This document shows positions 1 to 34,163 of a stretch of DNA of 35,896 nt, piece by piece. The DNA is from Eledone cirrhosa (Eukaryota), in assembly GCA_964016885.1 (NCBI GenBank), contig CAXHJY010001476.1, positions 1 through 35,896 on the forward strand. The letters run 5' to 3'. Each line of letters opens with the position of its first letter. Position 1 is the first letter of the stretch. A program made the position numbers and the translations under genes. Below the pieces are notes generated by a model. It did no database searches. It saw only the letters and a list, made by a program, of their open reading frames with translations, and was not told the origin of the DNA.

Positions 1-299
1 AAAAAAAACTTGGTACATCTACATATGTATACGTGTGTGTATTCATATACATACTAGTATTTCAGTATACATATATGGATGTACATCTTTGACTTAATTG
101 TTTGAGCGTCAGTCATACAAAAGTGAGTTACAAACGAAACGAAATTTAATTTCGTTTCGTTATTTGTTTTTATCGTCTCCGTTGAACCGGTACTTACTCA
201 CACTCTATGCAAGTTGGTCTGCCCACTACTAATTTTCATAGAAAAAGCATATAGCGATATGTGCTTTTACGATTCTCTAGAGTGGCCGGAAGATAGGTA

Positions 300-344
300 A
301 ATATTGCTGATGAGTTGTAACAACAACGAAACTAGTTCAATATT
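300..344 (+). ncRNA. Minimal type I hammerhead ribozyme (469-bp unit, copy 1)
   Basis: AATATTG-CTGATGA-GTTGT-AACA-ACAAC-GAAA-CTAG-TT/CAATATT: 7-bp helix I, intact CUGAUGA/GAAA core, 5-bp helix II, palindromic CUAG helix III loop, GUU triplet (predicted cut 337/338). Confidence 0.9.
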
Positions 345-768
345 CCTTGTCTGGCTTTCTGGAGAATAGAGGAAAGGTGTTTCCTCAAAAACCAGTATGA
401 CTCTAAAAACCGGTTTGTCTGTGTGTTTACATACAGAATAGCTGGCCACTCACAGTAAAGTGATCAGTGAAAAAAAACTTGGTACATCTACATATGTATA
501 CGTGTGTGTATTCATATACATACTAGTATTTCAGTATACATATATGGATGTACATCTTTGACTTAATTGTTTGAGCGTCAGTCATACAAAAGTGAGTTAC
601 AAACGAAACGAAATTTAATTTCGTTTCGTTATTTGTTTTTATCGTCTCCGTTGAACCGGTACTTACTCACACTCTATGCAAGTTGGTCTGCCCACTACTA
701 ATTTTCATAGAAAAAGCATATAGCGATATGTGCTTTTACGATTCTCTAGAGTGGCCGGAAGATAGGTA

Positions 769-813
769 AATATTGCTGATGAGTTGTAACAACAACGAAA
801 CTAGTTCAATATT
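769..813 (+). ncRNA. Minimal type I hammerhead ribozyme (469-bp unit, copy 2)
   Basis: Same motif as 300-344, offset by 469 bp. Confidence 0.9.
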
Positions 814-1036
814 CCTTGTCTGGCTTTCTGGAGAATAGAGGAAAGGTGTTTCCTCAAAAACCAGTATGACTCTAAAAACCGGTTTGTCTGTGTGTTTACA
901 TACAGAATAGCTGGCCACTCACAGTAAAGTGATCAGTGAAAAAAAACTTGGTACATCTACATATGTATACGTGTGTGTATTCATATACATACTAGTATTT
1001 CAGTATACATATATGGATGTACATCTTTGACTTAAT

Positions 1037-2112
<1,076 letters not shown>

Positions 2113-2743: not shown

Positions 2744-4704
<1,961 letters not shown>

Positions 4705-5741
4705 TGTGGTGCATGCAACAACATCCCTCAACAACATCCCTCACTAGCTATGCTGATGACACTAAGGTAGCACAGGCAATCAAAAACCCGGCTGACGCTG
4801 CCCTCTTACAGCAGGATCTGGATGCCATATACAGATGGGCGGAAGAAAACAACATGCAGTTTAATGCTGGCAAATTCCAAGCCCTACAATACAAACCTGC
4901 AAACACAAACACAAATATAGCGGAACACAGCTACACAGGACCAGGAGGGACCGATATCCCCGTGTCAAAATCGATACGAGACCTGGGCATAGACATGAGC
5001 GATGATGCATCTTTTTCTTCACACATCATGAAGGTGGCGACAGCATGTAGACGATTCGCTGGCTGGATCTTGAGGACTTTCCTTACAAGAGATCGAGACA
5101 CCATGTTGACACTGTGGAGGACTTTTGTCCTAAGCCGCCTGGACTACTGCTCCCAGCTGTGGTCACCCCATAGTGTCAAACTAACCACAGAGCTTGAGGC
5201 AATCCAGCGAAGCTACACCAAGAGGATTGCCAAGATGAGGGAGACAAGCTACTGGGAGAGGCTGAAGGAACTGAACCTCTACTCCTTGGAGCGAAGACGG
5301 GAGAGATACGCAGTGATCTACATGTGGAAAATCCTGGAGGGACTAGCACCAAACTTTGGCATTGGGAGCTGGACCAACCGTCGAACAGGACGTCACTGTG
5401 TGGTGCCAAAGGTCCGTCTTCCACATCTAGAATAAGGAGCAGGTATTGCAATAGCCTGGGATTCAAGGGCCCTCAACTCTTCAACAGGCTGCCGAGGCAT
5501 CTGCGAGACTTGCATGACGTGGAGGTGGATGTCTTTAAGAAACATATCGACACCTTGTTATCCAGGATCCCTGATGAGCCCACAGCAAGACACGAGGGAA
5601 ACCTAAGGGCAGCAGCAACAAACTCCCTCCTACACCAGTGGCCAACCTATACAGGCTGGAGATAAAATGTGTAGCAACAAGGGCGGTGCCCCAGCATGGC
5701 CTCAGCCGGATGGCTGAAACAGGTAAAAGAGTAAAAGAGTA
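4705..5741 (+). mobile_element. 5'-truncated CR1/L2-group LINE, family A copy 1 (RT C-terminus + 3' UTR)
   Basis: [25 protein letters not shown] and [11 protein letters not shown] motifs. 1-bp frameshift near 5413 and a short duplication near 4720-4741. 3' stem-loop and (GTAAAAGA)2 tail run into TA. Confidence 0.93.
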
Positions 5742-12390
<6,649 letters not shown>

Positions 12391-14324
12391 AAATTTGAAA
12401 TGTTTTGGCCAATATTGTCCCAGGCCATGTCTAACTTAATAGCACCACCTGGCGAAGTCTTTCAATTCAAGATTTGGGCACCATGGCCCATACGAGAAGA
12501 GAATTACTGTTTGCGGAGACATATCAGGGTGTGGGTGGTTTGTCCGGGATTACTTGGAGGAATTTGTCCAAAGACTTCTTGAATTTTGTGTGGTCAATTT
12601 CTGTTTTGACGTGTCATGGTGTGATGTTGAAGAGAGCAGGGCCAATTGAGGTGAAATAATTTTGCCGTATTGTTGTTATGAGTTGCGATTTAGATTTTTG
12701 TATGGGACGGATAGCACGAGGCCCAAGCCTTGGGTGTATCTTGAAGGCGATGCCAAAATCATTTGGGCAGTGATGATGGAACATTTTCCACATCATGCAG
12801 ATATTATAACGCTCACGGCGACGTTGGAGTGAGTAAAGTTTCAGCTTTTCTAGTCGACCCCAGTAGTCAAGGTCTGACATGCCATCTATCTTTTTCGTGA
12901 TTTACCCTTTGAGGAGCTTCAAGTTTCATGATACTTTGTTTCGTGTGGGGAGACCACAGTGGACAACAGTATTCAAGGTGTGGTCGGGAAAAAGTAGAGA
13001 AGAGAAGGATAATGGTGTGGGAATCTCTCGACTGGAAGGTTCTGAGGATCCAGGAACACATTCTGCGGGCCATGTCAACTTTGCTGCTTATATGCGTGGC
13101 CCAGCTTATGTTGCTGTCCACGGTTACTCCCAAGTCTCTGATGTTGTTAGATGCCACGAGAGTTTCCCTGGAGGGAAGGGAGTACGGGAGTTTCAGAGCA
13201 TCCTCGTTTCCAAAGTGGATCAGTTCGAATTTGTCTTCGTTCAGAAACATGTTGTTCTTTTCCGCCCATTGGGTAACAGCCAGTAGGTCTGACTGAAGGC
13301 TTATCCGGTTATCCACGCCATTGATGACCTTTTGGAGCTTGGAATCATCAGCGAAAATGTTAATGTTGCTGTGTTTGATGATGTCAGTGATGTCATTAAT
13401 ATAGATGATGAAGAGAAGAGTGTCCAACACAGTGCCTTGTGGGACCCCACTACTGACTTTGGCTGGGCTGGATTTGACTCCTTCAACTACAACATGTTGG
13501 GTTCTGTTTGACAGGAAGCTCTTGATCCACTGCAGCAGCTTTCCAGTGACACCAATATTGGACAGTTTTCTCAGTAGAATGTTATGATCAACCCTCTCAA
13601 AGGCCTTGCTGAAATCAAGGTAGATAACATCAGTGTTGGAACCCTCTCCCAAGGCTCTCAAAATGTCATCAAAGTGATGCAGTAGCTGCGTCAGGCAATC
13701 CCTTCCATTACGGAATCCATGCTGGTTGGAGTTCAGTATATTGTTACTCTCAAGGAAGTGGGTCATTCGCGATCTCACCACTCTCTCAAATACCTTAATA
13801 ATATGAGAGGTGAGTGAGATTGGACTGTAATTCACGGCAAGGGATTTGTTTCCTTTTTTGAAAACTGGGACAACAGACTGGGATAGAAGGTTTTCTGGCG
13901 CATATCCAGCATCCAGTGAGTTCCGCCACAGATTGGGAAGAGGAGATGCAAGTTGGTGTTGACACGCCTTCAAGACACAAGCAGGGAACCTATCGGGACC
14001 TACTGCTGAATTATGCTTGATTTCCTTTATTGCCGTTAAGACATCAGGGGCGCCAAACGTTATGTCCTATAAGGTGTAATGGGGAGTAACCTCGCCGATA
14101 CAACCCAGATCGGCCATATCAGGATTGCTGAAAACAGAGCAGTATTGTTTCTGCAGTATCTCACCCATGGTTTTAGCATTGTCTTGAAGAGTGCCATTTT
14201 CATCAATTAGAGGGCCAACAGTAGAGCCAGTAATTTTGTGTTTTTTTGCAAATGAAAAGAACACTTTGGGATTGAGTTTCATCTTCTCAATGGACCAGGC
14301 CTCTTCAGCTCTTCTCTGATACAA
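12391..14324 (-). mobile_element. Decayed 5'-truncated CR1/L2-group LINE, family B (RT domain)
   Basis: Frameshifted ORF pieces 14067-14324, 12867-13973 and 12614-12880 with NYSPISLTS, QHGFR, YLDFSKAF, GVPQG, FADDSK, LEYCCPLWSP and LYSLQRRRERY. TA flanks both sides. Confidence 0.93.
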
Positions 14325-14330
14325 TATATG

Positions 14331-14385
<55 letters not shown>

Positions 14386-14394
14386 ATATGTATT

Positions 14395-16609: not shown

Positions 16610-17986
16610 TACTCTTTTACTCTTTTACCTGTTTCAGCCATCCGGCTGAGGCCATGCTGTGGCACCGCCCTTGTTGCTACACATTTTATCTCCAGCCTGT
16701 ATAGGTTGGCCACTGGTGTAGTAGGGAGTTTGTTGCTGCTGCCCTTAGGTTTCCCTCGTGTCTTGCTGTGGGCTCATCCGGGATCCTGGATAACAAGGTG
16801 TCGAGATGTTTCTTAAAGACATCCACCTCCACGTCATGCAAGTCTCGCAGATGCCTCGGCAGCCTGTTGAAGAGTTGAGGGCCCTTGAATCCCAGGCTAT
16901 TGCAATACCTGCTCCTTATTCTAGATGTGGAAGACGGGACCTTTGGCACCACACAGTGACGTCCTGTTCGACGGTTGGTCCAGCTCCCAATGCCAAAGTT
17001 TGGTGCTAGTCCCTCCAGGATTTTCCACATGTAGATCACTGCGTATCTCTCCCGTCTTCGCTCCAAGGAGTAGAGGTTCAGTTCCTTCAGCCTCTCCCAG
17101 TAGCTTGTCTCCCTCATCTTGGCAATCCTCTTGGTGTAGCTTCGCTGGATTGCCTCAAGCTCTGTGGTTAGTTTGACACTATGGGGTGACCACAGCTGGG
17201 AGCAGTAGTCCAGGCGGCTTAGGACAAAAGTCTTCCACAGTGTCAACATGGTGTCTCGATCTCTTGTAAGGAAAGTCCTCAAGATCCAGCCAGCGAATCG
17301 TCTACATGTTGTCGCCACCTTCATGATGTGTGAAGAAAAAGATGCATCATCGCTCATGTCTATGCCCAGGTCTCGTATCGATTTTGACATGGGGATATCG
17401 TTCCCTCCTGGTCCTGTGTAGCTGTGTTCCGCTATATTTGTGTTTGTGTTTGCAGATTTGTATTGTAGGGCTTGGAATTTGCCAGCATTAAACTGCATGT
17501 TGTTTTCTTCCGCCCATCTGTATATGGCATCCAGATCCTGCTGTAAGAGGGCAGCGTCAGCCGGGTTTTTGATTGCCTGTGCTATCTTAGGGTCATCAGC
17601 ATATCTAGTGAGGGATGTTGTTGCATGCACCACAGAGGGCATGTCCGAGAGAGCCACAAAAACAGTAGTGGTCCCAGGACTGTCCCCTGGGGCACCCCAC
17701 TTGTTATCGGTGTTTCCCTCGAGAGGGCCCCATTTGCTGCGACTGCCTGGCTTCTGTCCCTTAGGAAGCCATGCAGCCACTCACCTACTTTTCCAGTTAT
17801 GCCGAGTCCGTGTAGTTTGTGACATATCATTCCGTGGTCGACCTTGTCAAAGGCCTTCGCAAAGTCAAGATATATCACGTCTACATGTGAGCTGTCTAGT
17901 AGTTGTCTCAGTACCCAGTCGCAGTGATGTAGCAGCTGTGTAAGGCAGCTTCTTCCTGGGCGGAAGCCATGTTGCGTGCTAGTCAT
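16610..17986 (-). mobile_element. 5'-truncated CR1/L2-group LINE, family A copy 2
   Basis: [23 protein letters not shown] and [10 protein letters not shown], then a frameshift near 17660 into YADD...SLERRRERY. Same 3' tail as copy 1. Confidence 0.94.
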
Positions 17987-19137
<1,151 letters not shown>

Positions 19138-19487
19138 TATTGGTAAACGGAATAGAAAATGCTGACAAATTGTTCACAGTTGAAAAATGGTTTAATTAGG
19201 AATAAAAGAGTATTAGTGATTGTATGGGTTAGTATTCAGTTGTGGTTTTAAGTTTTTAAGTTTTTACCGGTTGCGCATTTCTAAATGCTTTTCAAAAATA
19301 ATTTTGAGATAGAGTGTCCCTGCTGTTTGCTCTGATCTGATTAGTTTTGGGAATTCTACCTGTTTTTATGTTAAAAAAATGGCTCCAGCAAAAATTATGG
19401 TCAAAACAATTTTGATTGGTCGGTAGAGGTCATGTGGATAAAAAATTGGTTTTGCGCCAAGATTGAGAAATGACTCTTTCACAACAA

Positions 19488-19555
<68 letters not shown>

Positions 19556-19624
19556 TAGTAGTAGTAAGGTGTTCGATGCTGCGACAATAGCCACCAGCGA
19601 TGTGTGTCAAATGGCTATTAAGAT

Positions 19625-19662
<38 letters not shown>

Positions 19663-21077
19663 ACATACACACAGCAGAGTCATTCGAAGGTCAAAAGATA
19701 TTTTTCAGCTTTTGTCTTATACGGAGAAGTGCGTGTGTGTGTGTGTGTGTGTATAAGTCTCTTTGTATGTTGATGTACGCGTGTGTATGTGTTTGTGTAT
19801 ATATGTGTGTGTGTGTGTGTGTGCGTGTGTGGGTGGACCAGTATTTTTTTCCCCCCTGGTAAAATGGTGTACATTATTCGATTTTTTCAGTAAAAAAAAG
19901 TTCTCTTAATAGAACATCAACAATCTTAACAATAAAAGGTGTGAAATGATATTCACTATATATATATATACACACACACACACATATATATATTTTCACT
20001 ACATATATATATATATATATACATATATACATACATATATATGCACATATATTTTTTTGTATTGCACCATAGAGCATGTGTGTTTACGTGTGTCATTGTG
20101 TTTATATGTGGGTAGAGATGTGTGCTGATGTAGGTATGTATGTTGACGTGTGTATGTTGTGGGTTCGTCTTAGGGAGAAGTGTTTAGACGGGGTCCGTAT
20201 TTGTTAATGAAGTAAGATTCCTTGCTGATGCGCTGGGTGTGGGTGGCATTATCTTTAAATTTGTAGAGGGGAAAGATTCTGAAGTTGGGATGATTTTGGG
20301 CGGCGCAGGTATCAATGTGTTCACTCAGTGGTATTTTCCTGTATTCCCGTATTTTAATTTGGGATCTATGGACAGTCATGCGTTGGCGGAGGCTGTTTTT
20401 GGTCTGGCCTATGTATTGTTCTCGACAACCTGAACAAGTTAATACATATATTAAATTTTCCGATGCACATGTGAAATTGTGTTTTACTATAAAACGTTGT
20501 CCATCTTTGAAATAGAATTCCGAACCCTCTATTAGGTTGATGCAAATGCCACAGTTGGGTCTATCGCATTTTTTTACTGTGGGTTTCGTTGTTGTGGTTG
20601 GCAGTACTTTGGCATGTGTTAAGATGTTTTTCATTGACTTGGATTGTCTTTTGCTCTTGTGTGTGTGTGTATATATATATAGTGAATATCATTTCACACC
20701 TTTTATTGTTAAGATTGTTGATGTTCTATTAAGAGAACCGATTTTACTGAAAAAATCGAATAATGTACACCATTTTACCAGGGGGGAAAAAAATACTGGT
20801 CCACCCACACACGCACACACACACACACACACATATATACACAAGCACATACACACGCGTACATCAACATACAAAGAGACTTATACACACACACACACAC
20901 ACACACGCACTTCTCCGTATAAGACAAAGGCTGAAAAATATCTTTTGACCTTCGAATGACTCTGCTGTGTGTATGTACGCACACACACACACACACACAC
21001 ACACACTTATCTTAATAGACATTTGACACACATCGCTGGTGGCTATTGTCGCAGCATCGAACACCTTACTACTACTA

Positions 21078-21143
<66 letters not shown>

Positions 21144-21668
21144 ACATTTGTTGTGAAAGAGTCATTTCTCAATCTTGGCGCAAGACCAATTTTTTATCCA
21201 CATGACCTCTACCGACCAATCAAAATTGTTTTGACCATAATTTTTGCTGGAGCCACTTTTCTAACATTTTAACATAAAAACAGTCTTGGCGCAAAATCAA
21301 CTATTTACATTCACATGACCTCTACCGACCAATCAAAATTGTTTTGACCACAAGCATTTTTGCAACACAAAAATAACGCTGGAGCCATTTTTTTAACATA
21401 AAAACAGGTAGAATTCCCAAAACTAATCAGATCAGAGCAAACAGCAGGGACACTCTATCTCAAAATTATTTTTGAAAAGCATTTAGAAATGCGCAACCGG
21501 TAAAAACTTAAAAACTTAAAACCACAACTGAATACTAACCCATACAATCACTAATACTCTTTTATTCCTAATTAAACCATTTTTCAACTGTGAACAATTT
21601 GTCAGCATTTTCTATTCCGTTTACCAATATATAATAACTTGTGTGTTACACCTCTATTCTTTTAACTA
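19138..21668 (-). mobile_element. 5'-truncated Penelope-like element with inverted pLTR-like arms
   Basis: Arms ~19138-19984 and ~20658-21629 are reverse complements (CA/TG-rich) and enclose a GIY-YIG coding fragment. The right arm has an extra ~125-bp internal duplication and a ~38-bp extension. Confidence 0.85.
20170..20657 (-). pseudogene. GIY-YIG endonuclease domain of a Penelope-like element (RT portion truncated)
   Basis: SKRQ-linker, CDRPNCGIC Cys motif, NLIYVLTC..C...YIGQT, RQRM..H, SEH, KES.FI...PRLN. The frame is open upstream of the listed Met (20634) until it is cut by the inverted arm. Confidence 0.88.
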
Positions 21669-22249: not shown

Positions 22250-22299
22250 TATATATATATATATATATTTTATATATATATATATATATATGTATATAT

Positions 22300-25200
22300 C
22301 TATTTCAGAGCATTTATTCCAATTTCTAATTTCTGCCGGACCGGCAACCGCTCTTTCAAACCAGTTCCTGTACACAGCTAAGTATTCTATAAGTCTCTAG
22401 CTGTGTCATTCTCGATAAAAGCACTGGATATGTAGTCCTGAAGATTTCTAATAAGAATGAAACGCGTAGATTACTTCCCTTGCTTTTATCGAGAATCTAA
22501 TTGTAATACGTGACGTATTCTATTCTATAGCGATTAGGTCTTCAAAATGTTTATTATAAACATACAGAATATTTTCGAATATTCTATGTCTATATTCACA
22601 TATATATCGCTATTTCAGAGCATTTATTCCAATTTCTAATTTCTGCCGGACCGGCAACCGCTCGTTCAAACCAGTTCCTGTACACAGCTAAGTATTCTAT
22701 AAGTCTCGAGCTGTATCATTCTCGATAAAAGCACTGGATATGTAGTCCTGAAGATTTCTAATAAGAATGAAACGCGTAGATTACTTCCCTTGCTTTTATC
22801 GAGAATCTAATTGTAATACGTGACGTATTTTAATCTATAGCGATTAGGTCTTCAAAATGTTTATTATAAACATACAGAATATTTTCGAATATTCTATGTC
22901 TATATTCACATATATATCGCTATTTCAGAGCATTTATTCCAATTTCTAATTTCTGCCGGACCGGCAACTGCTCTTTCAAACCAGTTCCTGTACACAGCTA
23001 AGTATTCTATAAGTCTCTAGCTGTGTCATTCTCGATAAAAGCACTGGATATGTAGTCCTGAAGATTTCTAATAAGAATGAAACGCGTAGATTACTTCCCT
23101 TGCTTTTATCGAGAATCTAATTGTAATACGTGACGTATTCTATTCTATAGCGATTAGGTCTTCAAAATGTTTATTATAAACATACAGAATATTTTCGAAT
23201 ATTCTATGTCTATATTCACATATATATCGCTATTTCAGGGCATTTATTCCAATTTCTAATTTCTGCCGGACCGGCAACCGCTCTTTCAAACCAGTTCCTG
23301 TACACAGCTAAGTATTCTATAAGTCTCTAGCTGTGTCATTCTCGATAAAAGCACTGGATATGTAGTCCTGAAGATTTCTAATAAGAATGAAACGCGTAGA
23401 TTACTTCCCTTGCTTTTATCGAGAATCTAATTGTAATACGTGACGTATTCTATTCTATAGCGATTAGGTCTTCAAAATGTTTATTATAAACATACAGAAT
23501 ATTTTCGAATATTCTATGTCTATATTCACATATATATCGCTATTTCAGAGCATTTATTCCAATTTCTAATTTCTGCCGGACCGGCAACCGCTCTTTCAAA
23601 CCAGTTCCTGTACACAGCTAAGTATTCTATAAGTCTCTAGCTGTGTCATTCTCGATAAAAGCACTGGATATGTAGTCCTGAAGATTTCTAATAAGAATGA
23701 AACGCGTAGATTACTTCCCTTGCTTTTATCGAGAATCTAATTGTAATACGTGACGTATTCTATTCTATAGCGATTAGGTCTTCAAAATGTTTATTATAAA
23801 CATAAAGAATATTTTCGAATATTCTATGTCTATATTCACATATATATCGCTATTTCAGAGCATTTATTCCAATTTCTAATTTCTGCCGGACCGGCAACCT
23901 CTCTTTCAAACCAGTTCCTGTACACAGCTAAGTATTCTATAAATCTCTAGCTGTGTCATTCTCGATAAAAGCACTGGATATGTAGTCCTGAAGATTTCTA
24001 ATAAGAATGAAACGCGTAGATTACTTCCCTTGCTTTTATCGAGAATCTAATTGTAATACGTGACGTATTCTATTCTATAGCGATTAGGTCTTCAAAATGT
24101 TTATTATAAACATACAGAATATTTTCGAATATTCTATGTCTATATTCACATATATATCGCTATTTCAGAGCATTTATTCCAATTTCTAATTTCTGCCGGA
24201 CCGGCAACCGCTCTTTCAAACCAGTTCCTGTACACAGCTAAGTATTCTATAAGTCTCTAGCTGTGTCATTCTCGATAAAAGCACTGGATATGTAGTCCTG
24301 AAGATTTCCAATAAGAATGAAACGCGTAGATTACTTCCCTTGCTTTTATCGAGAATCTAATTGTAATACGTGACGTATTCTATTCTATAGCGATTAGGTC
24401 TTCAAAATGTTTATTATAAACATACAGAATATTTTCGAATATTCTATGTCTATATTCACATATATATCGCTATTTCAGAGCATTTATTCCAATTTCTAAT
24501 TTCTGCCGGACCGGCAACCGCTCTTTCAAACCAGTTCCTGTACACAGCTAAGTATTCTATAAGTCTCTAGCTGTGTCATTCTCGATAAAAGCACTGGATA
24601 TGTAGTCCTGAAGATTTCTAATAAGAATGAAACGCGTAGATTACTTCCCTTGCATTTATCGAGAATCTAATTGTAATACGTGACGTATTCTATTCTATAG
24701 CGATTAGGTCTTCAAAATGTTTATTATAAATATACAGAATATTTTCGAATATTCTATGTCTATATTCACATATATATCGCTATTTCAGAACATTTATTCC
24801 AATTTCTAATTTCTGCCGGACCGGCAACCGCTCTTTCAAACCAGTTCCTGTACACAGCTAAGTATTCTATAAGTCTCTAGCTGTGTCATTCTCGATAAAA
24901 GCACTGGATATGTAGTCCTGAAGATTTCTAATAAGAATGAAACGCGTAGATTACTTCCCTTGCTTTTATCGAGAATCTAATTGTAATACGTGACGTATTC
25001 TATTCTATAGCGATTAGGTCTTCAAAATGTTTATTATAAACATACAGAATATTTTCGAATATTCTATGTCTATATTCACATATATATCGCTATTTCAGAG
25101 CATTTATTCCAATTTCTAATTTCTGCCGGACCGGAAACCGCTCTTTCAAACCAGTTCCTGTACACAGCTAAGTATTCTATAAGTCTCTAGCTGTGTCATT

Positions 25201-25698
25201 CTCGATAAAAGCACTGGATATGTAGTCCTGAAGATTTCTAATAAGAATGAAACGCGTAGATTACTTCCCTTGCTTTTATCGAGAATCTAATTGTAATACG
25301 TGACGTATTCTATTCTATAGCGATTAGGTCTTCAAAATGTTTATTATAAACATACAGAATATTTTCGAATATTCTATGTCTATATTCACATATATATCGC
25401 TATTTCAGAGCATTTATTCCAATTTCTAATTTCTGCCGGACCGGCAACCGCTCTTTCAAACCAGTTCCTGTACACAGCTAAGTATTCTATAAGTCTCTAG
25501 CTGTGTCATTCTCGATAAAAGCACTGGATATGTAGTCCTGAAGATTTCTAATAAGAATGAAACGCGTAGATTACTTCCCTTGCTTTTATCGAGAATCTAA
25601 TTGTAATACGTGACGTATTCTATTCTATAGCGATTAGGTCTTCAAAATGTTTATTATAAACATACAGAATATTTTCGAATATTCTATGTCTATATTCA
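22300..25698 (+). repeat. 310-bp tandem array, 11 units, each with a hammerhead ribozyme (retrozyme-like)
   Basis: Units start at 22301, 22611, 22921, 23231, 23541, 23851, 24161, 24471, 24781, 25091 and 25401, with only scattered substitutions. TA flanks both sides. Confidence 0.97.
22432..22474 (+). ncRNA. Minimal type I hammerhead ribozyme (310-bp unit, first of 11)
   Basis: GTAGTC-CTGAAGA-T-TTCT-AATA-AGAA-T-GAAA-CGCG-TA/GATTAC: palindromic CGCG helix III, GUA triplet (predicted cut 22468/22469). Further copies start at 22742, 23052, 23362, 23672, 23982, 24292, 24602, 24912, 25222 and 25532. Confidence 0.9.
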
Positions 25699-25759
25699 TA
25701 TATATATATATATTTTATATATATATATATATTTTATATATATATATGTATATATATTT

Positions 25760-25961: not shown

Positions 25962-26027
25962 GTATATATATAAATGTAAGTATGTATGTATACGTACATA
26001 CATATATGTATACAGACGTACAGTAGC

Positions 26028-26058
<31 letters not shown>

Positions 26059-26255
26059 AGTATGTATATATAAGCATGTATATATATATATATATATATA
26101 TACATGCAGGTACACATACATATATGCACGCATCAGTTTAGCAGACGCTTATTATAGCGCTGCTTTGTTCGTTTGTCAACAAACTGAACAGCCTGAATCT
26201 ATGCCATACGGTGTTAAGGCAACCACGTCACCTTTTTGTTCAACACTGACACAGG

Positions 26256-26300
26256 AACGATGTACTAGTTTCAAGCTTGTTAGCTATCATCAGCACCGTT
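26256..26300 (-). ncRNA. Minimal type I hammerhead ribozyme (497-bp unit, left copy)
   Basis: Minus strand reads AACGGTG-CTGATGA-T-AGCT-AACA-AGCT-T-GAAA-CTAG-TA/CATCGTT. Confidence 0.88.
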
Positions 26301-26540
26301 TACCCATCTGCCAGATAGTTGAACGTTCGAAAGTATATACTTTCCTTATGAAAATTAACGGCTGAGCAGCCTAATTTGCATATTGAGTGAGTTAAATCGG
26401 TCAGGCATACCGAAAACGATAAGTTGAAAAAAATGAAAACGAAAAACGAAATTTCATTTCTCACTCTTAGCATGGCACTTACTTAAATGTAAGTATGTAT
26501 GTATACGTACATACATATATGTATACAGACGTACAGTAGC

Positions 26541-26602
<62 letters not shown>

Positions 26603-26752
26603 GCAGGTACACATACATATATGCACGCATCAGTTTAGCAGACGCTCATTATAGCGCTGCTTTGTTCGTTTGTCAACAAACTTCACAGCCTGAATCTATG
26701 CCATACGGTGTTAAGGCAACCACGTCACCTTTTTGTTCAACACTGACACAGG

Positions 26753-26797
26753 AACGATGTACTAGTTTCAAGCTTGTTAGCTATCATCAGCACCGTT
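26753..26797 (-). ncRNA. Minimal type I hammerhead ribozyme (497-bp unit, right copy)
   Basis: Same motif as 26256-26300, offset by 497 bp. Confidence 0.88.
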
Positions 26798-27061
26798 TAC
26801 CCATCTGCCAGATAGTTGAACGTTCGAAAGTATATACTTTCCTTATGAAAATTAACGGCTGAGCAGCCTAATTTGCATATTGAGTGAGTTAAATCGGTCA
26901 GGCATACCGAAAACGATAAGTTGAAAAAATGAAAACGAAAAACGAAATTTCATTTCTCACTCTTAGTATACATACTTACATTTAAGTAAGTGCCATACTA
27001 AGAGTGAGAAATGAAATTTCGTTTTTCGTTTTTCGTTTTTCGTTTTCATTTTTTTCAACTG

Positions 27062-28789: not shown

Positions 28790-31700
28790 TAATGACCATG
28801 CTGTAAAATGGAGGGGTAGAGAGGGCCCTTGAGTCTAGTAAGACATCCTCTCTAGTGCTGGTGGCACAAATAAAAGCACCCAGTCCATGCTGTAAAGTGG
28901 CGCTGGTGTTAGGAAGGGCATCCAACCAGTGTATCAATGCCAAAAAGCTTATCAGCACAGTAACAAAACAGCATAGAAAAATATGAAGACGTCGCATCTC
29001 AGAGTTGCAACACTTAATGTTGGCACTCTCAGAGGTAGGTCTGCTGAAATAGCGGAGATGCTGGAGAGAAGGCAGGTGGATGTGTGCTGCGTGCAAGAGG
29101 TGAGATGGAGGGGTGCCTCTGCGAGACTAGTCGTAGGCAAGCGTCTTAGCTATAAGCTATTCTGGGTAGGTAAGGATGATGGGTTAGGGGGAGTAGGCAT
29201 TTTCCTGGCTGAGAAATGGATCAATAAGACAATAGAGGTAGTTCGAGTTAGTAATCGAATAATTAAGCTTAGATTAGTTGTAGGTAGGAGACTACTGACA
29301 ATCATCTCGGTCTATGCTCCCCAAGCAGGCCTAGGCAAAGATGAGAAAGACTGCTTTTATGAGCAACTTTTGCAAACAACCACAATGACAGAGGACGGAG
29401 ACATCGTTATGCTAGCAGGAAACTTCAATGGTCATGTTGGACAGCTCCAGGATGGTTACACTGGGGTACATGGTGGGCACGGTTACGGTTCAAGAAATGA
29501 AGAAGGAGTGAGACTTCTTGAATTTTGTGATGCAAGTACATTGACTATTTGCAACACAAACTTCCAGAAACCTGCCAATCACCTAATAACCTACAAATCT
29601 GGTGAGCACATAAGCCAGATTGACTTCCTGCTAGTTAGGCAGCGGGACAGGCAGATAGTGTCTAATACCAAAGCATACCCTGGGGAAGAATTTACCCCAC
29701 AGCATAGGTTAGTTGTTAGTGATATCTCAGTAAGCAAGAGATGGAATGAGACATATAGGAAGGTGTGGAGAAGAAAGGTCTGGAAGCTAAAAGACCTTTC
29801 ACTAAAATTCAAATTTAGGAAAGCCCTTCAAGATGTATATGACGAAAAAGAAGACGATTTAGAGACGTATGACATAGATAATAACTGGAAGTTCTTACGT
29901 GACAACTTGCTGAAGGCTACTGATGAAACCTGTGGCTGGAGCAGAGCTCCAACCAGACAGAGAGTGACCTGGTGGTGGAACAGCAGTGTAGATAAGGCTA
30001 TTAGAGACAAAAGACTAGCATGGAAGGCTTGGAATAAGGGTGAGAGTAGGGAAGAATATACAGCCACTAAGAGAGAAGCTAGACGTCAGGTGTACTTAGC
30101 ACGCAGGGAGGCAGAGAGTAGGAGGTTTGCCAATGTTCTGCGACGGGAAGATCAGAGGCGTGCGGTGTTCCACATTGCAAGGCAGTGTGTCAATGCAAAT
30201 CAGGATGTTGTTGGTGATAAATGTGTCCGGGATGATGCCGGTGTACTTAGTGTCACGAATGACCAGAAAAAGGAGGCCTGGAAATGTCATTATGAGAGAC
30301 TGATGAATGTGGAGAACGAATGGGAGAGAGAGAAATTACCCTTGGTAGATCCGACAGAGGGACCAGCTATTGAGATTGACGAATATAGGGTCCAAGAGGC
30401 GATTAGGGAAATGAAAAATGGTAAGGCGGCCGGACCATCGGGAATAGTTGCTGAGATGCTGAAGGCATCAGGGGACGTAGGCACTAAACTGGTTGCACGC
30501 ATAATCAATCAGGCTATATATGGTGGTGTCATACCCAAAGACTGGTGCAGCAGTATTCTCATAAATTGCTACAAAGGTAAAGGGGATGCTTTGGAGAGGA
30601 GCAATTATAGGGGTATAAAACTGATAGATCAGGTTATGAAAGTGGCAGAAAGGATTTTAGCACAACTAATTAGAGAAAGGGTCAAACTAGATGAGATGCA
30701 GTTTGGTTTTGTGCCTGGGAAGAGTACAACAGATGCCCTCTTCTTGGTGAGACAAATGCAAGAGAGGTTCTTAGAGAAGAATAAGCCACTATACTTAGCC
30801 TTTGTTGACCTAGAGAAGGCCTTTGATAGGGTACCCCGATCTGTCATCTGGTGGTCCCTAAGGAAGCTGGATGTTGAGGAATGGCTTGTAAGGACAGTGC
30901 AAACTTTGTACAGAGGTACTCTCAGTAAAGTCAGGGTAGGAATGGAGTTTAGTGAGGAATTCCAGATACAAGTAGGAGTACATCAGGGTTCGGTCCTCAG
31001 CCCGCTCTTGTTCATTATAGTCCTCCAAGCCATAACAGAGGAGTTTAAGACTGGCTGTCCATGGGAACTTCTCTATGCTGACGATCTGGCTCTTATGGCA
31101 GAATCAGTAGAGGAGCTAGAGAATAAATTCCGGCTATGGAAACAGCAGTTGGAAGCAAGAGGACTGAGAGTAAATCTAGCTAAGACAAAAGTGTTGATGA
31201 GTAGAAAAGAGGACAAAACCCTGATTCCGTCAGGGAAATGGCCATGTTCGATATGCAGAAAAGGAACTGGCATAAATTCTATAAAATGCACACAATATAG
31301 GTCCTGGGTACACAAGAGATGTAGCGGGATAGCAGGCAAACTAACAGGTAGGGAGAAATATGTATGCAGTAGATTTACAGGGAAATTAGACAGTAGAAGT
31401 CGCACTGATAGACACATTTTTCAAATGCGAGAGGGCGCTATAGAAGTGGTGGATAGCTTCCGGTACCTAGGAGATCAGATTAGCATGGGAGGAGGGTGTT
31501 CCGAGGCCATAGTATCTAGAATAAGGACGGGTTGGAAGAAGTTTAGGGAGCTGCTTCCTCTGTTGACGAAGAAGGGTTTCTCCCTGGGTTCGAAAGGCCG
31601 GTTGTAAGATGCCTGTGTGAGGAGCGCGATGCTGCATGGTAGTGAGACATGGGCAGCAACCGCAGAAGATATGCGACGGCTGGAGAGAAATGAGGCAAGC

Positions 31701-32079
31701 ATGCTCCGTTGGATGTGCAGTGTAAATGTGCGTGAACGACCCAGCATAAATGTGTTGAGAGAGAAACTGTGTCTGAGAGGGATAGAATGTAGTGTACGGG
31801 AGAGGAGACTGAGGTGGTATGGACATGTGATGCGCATGGAGGATGACCGATGGGTGAAGAAGTGCCAGGAAATGCCAGTTGAAGGAAGACGTGGTAGAGG
31901 TAGACCACGAAAAACATGGGCGGAGGTGGTGAGAACAGACCTCAGATCATTGAAGCTCACGGTGGAGATGACGAGGGACCGTGACGAGTGGAGAGATGCT
32001 GTGCTGAATAAGACCCGTCCCACCCTTGCAAGCAGGGAAAAGCGGACGTAAAATGATGATGATGATGATGATGATGATG
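28790..32079 (+). mobile_element. Near-full-length RTE-clade LINE with (ATG)n tail
   Basis: Putative ~190-bp 5' UTR (left boundary approximate), single APE-RT reading frame, and ATG-repeat tail ~32053-32079 directly after the stop, running into TA. Confidence 0.93.
28983..32051 (+). pseudogene. RTE ORF (APE endonuclease + reverse transcriptase) interrupted by one in-frame stop
   Basis: APE motifs TLNVGTL, VQEV, SVYAPQ, GNFNG, SQIDF, QHRLV. RT motifs NYRGIKL, QFGF, FVDLEKAFD, GVHQGSVLSP, LLYADDL, FRYLG. TAA at 31605-31607 is followed in frame by [15 protein letters not shown]...RRLRWYGH...RGRPRKTW. Confidence 0.93.
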
Positions 32080-33210
<1,131 letters not shown>

Positions 33211-34163
33211 TACTCTTTTACTCTTTTACCTGTTTCAGCCATCCGGCTGAGGCCATGCTGGGGCACCGCCCTTGTTGCTACACATTTTATCTCCAGCCTG
33301 TATAGGTTGGCCACTGGTGTAGGAGGGAGTTTGTTGCTGCTGCCCTTAGGTTTCCCTCGTGTCTTGCTGTGGGCTCATCAGGGATCCTGGATAACAAGGT
33401 GTCGATATGTTTCTTAAAGACATCCACCTCCACGTCATGCAAGTCTCGCAGATGCCTCGGCAGCCTGTTGAAGAGTTGAGGGCCCTTGAATCCCAGGCTA
33501 TTGCAATACCTGCTCCTTATTCTAGATGTGGAAGACGGGACCTTTGGCACCACACAGTGACGTCCTGTTCGACGGTTGGTCCAGCTCCCAATGCCAAAGT
33601 TTGGTGCTAGTCCCTCCAGGATTTTCCACATGTAGATCACTGCGTATCTCTCCCGTCTTCGCTCCAAGGAGTAGAGGTTCAGTTCCTTCAGCCTCTCCCA
33701 GTAGCTTGTCTCCCTCATCTTGGCAATCCTCTTGGTGTAGCTTCGCTGGATTGCCTCAAGCTCTGTGGTTAGTTTGACACTATGGGGTGACCACAGCTGG
33801 GAGCAGTAGTCCAGGCGGCTTAGGACAAAAGTCCTCCACAGTGTCAACATGGTGTCTCGATCTCTTGTAAGGAAAGTCCTCAAGATCCAGCCAGCGAATC
33901 GTCTACATGCTGTCGCCACCTTCATGATGCATCATCGCTCATGTCTATGCCCAGGTCTCGTATCGATTTTGACACGGGGATATCGGTCCCTCCTGGTCCT
34001 GTGTAGCTGTGTTCCGCTATATTTGTGTTTGTGTTTGCAGGTTTGTATTGTAGGGCTTGGAATTTGCCAGCATTAAACTGCATGTTGTTTTCTTCCGCCC
34101 ATCTGTATATGGCATCCAGATCCTGCTGTAAGAGGGCAGCGTCAGCCGGGTTTTTGATTGCCT
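33211..34163 (-). mobile_element. 5'-truncated CR1/L2-group LINE, family A copy 3
   Basis: Near-identical to copies 1 and 2, with the same 3' tail. 16-bp deletion between GATG microhomologies near 33929. Confidence 0.94.

Follow-up and report, generated by a model that had tools for sequence, protein, structure and literature searches.

Do the two tandem repeats that lie on opposite strands of a window dominated by TA microsatellites (the whole stretch of 35,896 nt analysed here, from the 3.0-Gb genome of Eledone cirrhosa) descend from one hammerhead-bearing element whose fold has been maintained, and if so, what spread it? An earlier note had proposed, from alignment by eye, that a 497-bp repeat is a diverged, collinear homologue of a 469-bp repeat on the other strand. 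We term the 469-bp unit A and the 497-bp unit B, and their parts in the window are as follows:

1 to 1037, plus strand: A array, 2.2 identical units of 469 bp truncated at the contig start, with a short-site end against (TA)n
99 to 170, plus strand: A tail, 72 nt, homologous to the B tail
300 to 344, plus strand: A hammerhead 1, with G-C at the base of helix II and the cleavage triplet GUU; Rfam Hammerhead_HH9 match
769 to 813, plus strand: A hammerhead 2, from the core motif scan and Hammerhead_HH9
25971 to 26969, minus strand: B array of two tandem units, period 497, with its short (tail-less) end at (TA)n
26256 to 26300, minus strand: B hammerhead 2, identical to B hammerhead 1
26422 to 26491, minus strand: B tail, 70 nt, between the short and long end sites, with predicted hairpins
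26544 to 26599, no strand: variable (TA)n tract of the B unit, predicted to lie in the loop region of a long hairpin
26753 to 26797, minus strand: B type I hammerhead 1, core from 26790, predicted cut after GUA at 26760
26966 to 27060, plus strand: B inverted arm, joined to the array by a 4-nt overlap (26966-26969), with a long-site end against (TA)n

Aligned locally, A and the minus-strand B unit reach a score of 749, which none of 500 dinucleotide shuffles (440±21) attains; the wrong-strand control gives z 1.6 (38/500). Once TA runs are collapsed, the two units align over their full length, with 290 of 428 aligned positions identical (68%) and 58 gap positions. A 120-nt segment upstream of the ribozyme suffices on its own (z 7.9, 0/500), the downstream and far-upstream stretches being weak alone (z 2.5 and 2.3, 12/500 each), and the tails of A and B are homologous as well (170 against 87±12.5, 0/500 shuffles). 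This confirms that A and B are collinear homologues on opposite strands. The unit length of 497 bp holds for the window copy and not generally, as the (TA)n tract is variable and periods of 467-526 occur; likewise, the last 95 bp (26966-27060) of what had been taken as the 497-bp element are the inverted arm, outside the tandem. Both units have a GC content of 0.34-0.35, and the reading frames listed over them are only short or TA-derived. Their predicted circular monomers fold at z -9.1 and -9.9 against 30 shuffles, values that TA inflates, and by inspection display a similar series of hairpins.

Each unit features a type I hammerhead core with the three-helix layout, of the form CUGAUGA-14 nt-GAAACUAGU, with cores starting at 307 and 776 (plus strand) in A and at 26790 and 26293 (minus strand) in B, so both elements contain two or more adjacent tandem units whose hammerheads are complete. 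The A hammerhead is of type I with a 1-bp helix III and a palindromic CUAG loop; that of B has a helix I of 7 bp, a helix II of 4 bp over a U·U and a helix III of 1 bp plus the palindromic CUAG. Rfam Hammerhead_HH9 scores A at 37.7 bits (E 7.7e-8; gathering score 52) and B at only 18.5 bits (E 0.11), and at the gathering threshold Rfam returned no match for either. The microRNA-family Rfam matches obtained at E-value thresholds fall on TA-rich hairpins and were dismissed. In the predicted fold the intramolecular helix III pair has a probability near 0 and the inner helix I pairs of B reach only 0.18-0.28, while self-pairing of ACUAGU is predicted at -4.8 kcal/mol. A 1-bp helix III with a self-pairing ACUAGU is the dimer-dependent hammerhead design described in PMC4209133 and PMC7229834. 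The axolotl HHR_Amex1 shares its 1-bp helix III and palindromic tetraloop with both A and B, and HHR_Amex2 its U·U at the helix II base with B; both axolotl ribozymes cleave better as dimers (PMC7229834), and B unites the two weakening features, whereas A has only the 1-bp helix III. We infer from these layouts that the A and B hammerheads may be capable of self-cleavage; counting against this, only one of nine retrozyme dimers was reported to cleave in vitro in a 2026 preprint (10.64898/2026.07.22.740005).

Exact-pattern searches with the 14-nt insert recovered 40,062 plus 260 motifs (~40,300) across the whole genome, with one match in each of the reversed-pattern controls for these two counts (0-1 across patterns). 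Motifs with a B-type helix II account for 27,779 of the ~40,300, with U·U at the helix II base in 96 of the first 100 listed, and a pattern dominated by a subfamily that we name A2 accounts for 4,149. We also coin the names B2 and B3, the latter a third group with C·A or C-G at the helix II base; identity is 89-96% between A and A2 and 83-84% between B and B2. The top copies of A and B are 99-100% identical and spread over many chromosomes. Because A and B have diverged while such copies remain near-identical, their sequences indicate an old split and a recent amplification. In one A2 array (L097) two variants of the unit alternate, for a higher-order period of 939 bp. B-like sequence is present in six public runs from four studies, none listed as RNA; run X1 has both A and B on many contigs, and a poly(A) run (X7), which is no test of expression, has 0 A/B reads.

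Other hammerheads and repeats accompany this family. A set of older hammerhead-like motifs with an ACUAGU helix III and a longer helix II comprises 174 pattern matches with 15-19-nt inserts, many of which are indel variants of B or A. Twenty older loci (L119-L138) considered as further clades are unrelated to A/B, none being convincing against mononucleotide shuffles (upstream z no higher than 3.7 with A or 2.4 with B). The window itself holds a third hammerhead repeat at 22293-25707 (plus strand), an 11-copy array of a 310-bp unit with U·U at the helix II base and a palindromic CGCG loop, which has 2,585 exact motifs in the genome, shows head-to-head strand switches, and aligns at z 3.9 with A and 2.6 with B. 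LINE-type RT fragments lie between the TA tracts at 28977-32051 and 4700-5760 (plus) and at 12867-14393, 16686-17940 and 33287-34130 (minus), two of the five with RVT_1; hammerhead-core-like strings at 5571 and 33381 fall within their coding frame. Positions 2116-2740 and 3350-3480 comprise a TA-flanked element, whose terminal direct repeat recurs some 550 bp away, and a short stretch whose minus strand resembles a decayed copy of another hammerhead from other loci.

Compensatory changes between A and B had been claimed for the ribozyme stems. Of the 12 pairs of helices I and II, five are the same, six carry two-sided changes that still pair, one is lost and none has a one-sided change (0/12). 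The helix I change from AATATTG/CAATATT to AACGGTG/CATCGTT is as claimed; for helix II (GTTGT/ACAAC to tAGCT/AGCTt) the change is real but the basal pair is the one lost, from G-C to U·U. Identity between A and B is 11/11 in the core and 10/24 at stem positions, and when 14 changes are placed randomly on the 24 stem positions, at least 11 of the 12 pairs survive in 102 of 400,000 runs under one transition bias and in 387 under another. The distal extension of helix I has two two-sided and two one-sided changes in five pairs. The AACA loop and core, thought invariant, are so between the A and B copies; family-wide the loop varies (AACA/AATA), as does core position 7 in hammerhead numbering (U/C); CUAG was required by the pattern searches, which are thus uninformative on its invariance. 

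We then have a larger alignment of 12 subfamily representatives drawn from 75 distinct segments, with the 20 older hammerhead loci and L099 excluded, in which 91.7% of cells pair as against 29-51% with slid partners. Its covariation score exceeds all 500 shuffles, but the number of pairs with two-sided changes is not above that of column shuffles (125/500 reach it). Most of the paired changes derive from the single A-versus-B split, with a few independent ones that include U-A to A-U in helix II (A versus A2) and G-U to U-G in helix I (B versus B2). The covariation is accordingly good, but not of R-scape grade, because it is mostly one deep split; the earlier view of a fold under selection in an old, diversified family keeps the homology, the structure-preserving change and the old split in its favor, with the weight of a single event against it. 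Template switching in hairpins could also create paired changes, and ordinary satellite or foldback DNA that gained its paired changes in this way, its RNA never under selection, would suit both the predominance of that one split and the richness of the units in palindromes and inversions. We regard this as highly improbable given the invariance of the unpaired core, the dispersal over many chromosomes, the Rfam hammerhead match of A (E 7.7e-8) and the fixed ends with their long-plus-short rule, described below.

A clear pointer to the mode of spread is the footprint of insertion. In the window, the B insertion has its short end at 25971 and its opposite end 70 nt further along the unit, both against TA. 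A census of 40 further loci (29 in order along C1, omitting any already in the set, and 11 others, mostly chosen, with their ends unseen, for opposite-strand motif pairs; 69 arms reduced to 68 by a score filter) placed 62 of the 68 arm ends at one of two sites, short or long, which are homologous in A and B and 61-72 nt apart (A 26/28, B 36/40), although the two end windows together make up about 9% of the unit. TA-rich DNA adjoins 51 of the 62 fixed ends; a TA-like tract precedes the B short site and may inflate a few of the calls there. In an earlier set of loci, selected in part from hits, 45 of 59 ends fell at these sites, and in an independent run A breaks off at the long site, ahead of TA (5 contigs, place 173). 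Among 22 head-to-head pairs, 17 are long plus short, none is long plus long or short plus short, and five have a truncated arm; hence, every complete head-to-head insertion (17) combines both end types. Two of these, in L207, resemble one duplicated insertion, which leaves 16, with a probability of about 1.5e-5 at even odds. Minor variants are common to both arms in L007, L018, L027 and L030, whereas in L012 the arms differ at two sites, which counts against the PLE-driven retrozyme reading given below. The fixed ends lie 213-314 nt from the predicted cleavage site, implying a template that spans the ribozyme junction, be it a circle or an uncut multimer.

Tails at one end, inverted 5′-truncated arms and AT-rich or microsatellite targets are shared by A/B with the Penelope-like elements (PLEs), for which PMC8557442 describes inversions, a 30-40-bp tail at one end and a microsatellite bias. 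A PLE protein cuts and extends both strands of AT-rich DNA, and in vitro its reverse transcription starts at two internal RNA sites bounding the tail (PMC11167929); the A/B footprint of two ends, head-to-head arms and TA fits such two-site priming. Poseidon PAc (PMC11167929), as well as Naiad/Chlamys and the non-autonomous MRC1 (PMC8557442), resemble A/B: they target AT-rich/(TA)n DNA, show head-to-head inversions, mostly bear a tail on just one end and have two internal RT start sites. A/B differ from these PLEs in the lack of an ORF, in a tail of 61-72 nt rather than 30-40, and in a canonical hammerhead where that of PLEs is minimal or absent.

PLEs of the same genome, with 39-nt and 60-nt tails, leave an end pattern like that of A/B. 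An inverted, 5′-truncated copy of the first, a young 784-aa PLE, sits in TA within the window (19140-21667; GIY-YIG at 20170-20688, minus strand), with the 39-nt tail at one end and none at the other; this RT + GIY-YIG family has at least 150 copies matching at 96-100%, and no hammerhead turned up when one full copy was scanned with relaxed settings. The second young family (L215-L244) targets TA and carries a minimal hammerhead within its 3′ region. At 60 nt its tail exceeds the 30-40 bp given in PMC8557442, and its 32 ends comprise 15 short, 13 long and 4 unscored. A third family examined is older, and the genome has many more PLE candidates. No sequence common to A/B and an autonomous PLE was found in these three families or the 20 older hammerhead loci, the PLE tails that were tested do not align with those of A/B (95-416/500 shuffles reach the score), and no RT + GIY-YIG ORF contiguous with an A/B repeat was found in the loci and three families examined. 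By tail length alone, the 60-nt-tail family is a candidate helper for A/B.

Could the units simply be detached terminal repeats (pLTRs) of 5′-truncated autonomous PLEs? PLEs are known for tails, inversions and TA targeting (PMC8557442), and PLE ORFs lie within 3 kb at 4 of 20 loci. However, a TA run intervenes between unit and ORF in L084, L086 and L100, a TA run and more than 2 kb of other sequence in L098, and in L152 a B2 insertion interrupts the 3′ region of a PLE. The 3′ regions of the three examined PLE families are, moreover, unrelated to A/B, and the ribozyme is of the canonical type with a 7-bp helix I rather than the minimal PLE type of PMC4209133. We hence consider such an origin very unlikely.

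Instead, we posit that A and B are probably two clades of one noncoding hammerhead tandem repeat, a non-LTR retrozyme, likely spread by a PLE RT-endonuclease. Tandem copies would be transcribed, two hammerheads would pair via a palindromic ACUAGU helix III to excise a monomer, and a host ligase may circularize it. The PLE protein would then cut both strands of a TA tract and prime cDNA at two internal sites, one per strand, with synthesis running past the ribozyme junction once or many times, and a short microhomology would join the two cDNAs. Selection on this replication cycle would keep the core and fold while the sequence drifts, and selection is most simply seen as acting on the element's own replication rather than on a host function.

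Whether cleavage enters this cycle bears on a further alternative, which we rate as unlikely though not negligible, wherein PLEs mobilize the units from uncut linear multimeric transcripts, the hammerhead is inherited and weakly used, and no circle forms; long arrays would then stem from long transcripts or later local amplification. In PMC11167929, mutating the hammerhead did not abolish insertion in vitro and the cut site was not seen as a read end, suggesting that cleavage and circles may not be needed. The apparent weakness of the B ribozyme (fold probabilities, Rfam E 0.11), the same end pattern in the 784-aa PLE whose one scanned copy yielded no hammerhead, and the alternating 939-bp period of L097 are in keeping with this. 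Against it, a core unchanged at 11/11 positions and stems that still pair at 10/24 identity imply that either catalysis or the fold persisted while the sequences diverged by about 30%, and some inverted insertions comprise about 31 units or carry 15 identical ones in a single arm.

A more specific form of the retrozyme reading, which we advance tentatively and hold as possible rather than probable, is that A/B are circular-RNA parasites inserted by a PLE dimer in one twin-primed rolling-circle event, the recognized signal being RNA structure and not a sequence shared with the helper. The two PLE subunits would begin at separate fixed sites of one RNA, each serving one DNA strand, so that every complete inverted insertion would have exactly one tail, and the recognized structure would be conserved across the whole unit.

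At the sequence level, A and B qualify as non-LTR retrozymes. Like those of animals (PMC7229834; 10.64898/2026.07.22.740005), they are noncoding tandem repeats with one type I hammerhead per unit, a GC content below 45%, thousands of copies, a highly self-paired predicted fold and PLEs in the same genome. Their units of 422-526 bp exceed the about 170-400 nt of Cervera and de la Pena 2020 (PMC7229834) and lie inside the 51-972 bp range of the 2026 preprint (Li, Clavereau and Pollet). Unlike the animal retrozymes described there, B has an internal (TA)n, and no pLTR homologue was found for A/B in the three PLE families examined. The words "inverted" and "microsatellite" are absent from the main text of PMC7229834, as is "tail" from that of the preprint, where "inverted" occurs only in a reference title. 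Literature searches of main texts found no tail/inversion footprint for retrozymes, though supplements may show such ends; searches linking retrozymes with twin priming, or for hammerhead satellite DNA in cephalopods, found nothing.

The ribozyme and the element class are already well known, and the insertion footprint is a useful addition. A link between retrozymes and PLEs has been proposed (PMC7229834; 10.64898/2026.07.22.740005), based so far on co-occurrence and pLTR similarity; the A/B insertion footprint, in which the two arms begin at separate fixed sites and lie in TA tracts, is itself a pointer to PLE enzymes. The later steps of the PLE mechanism are termed unvalidated in PMC11167929, and the in vitro PLE assay already available could use the A/B units as short substrates, while their ~40,000 copies in two 68%-identical clades constitute a large natural data set on that mechanism.
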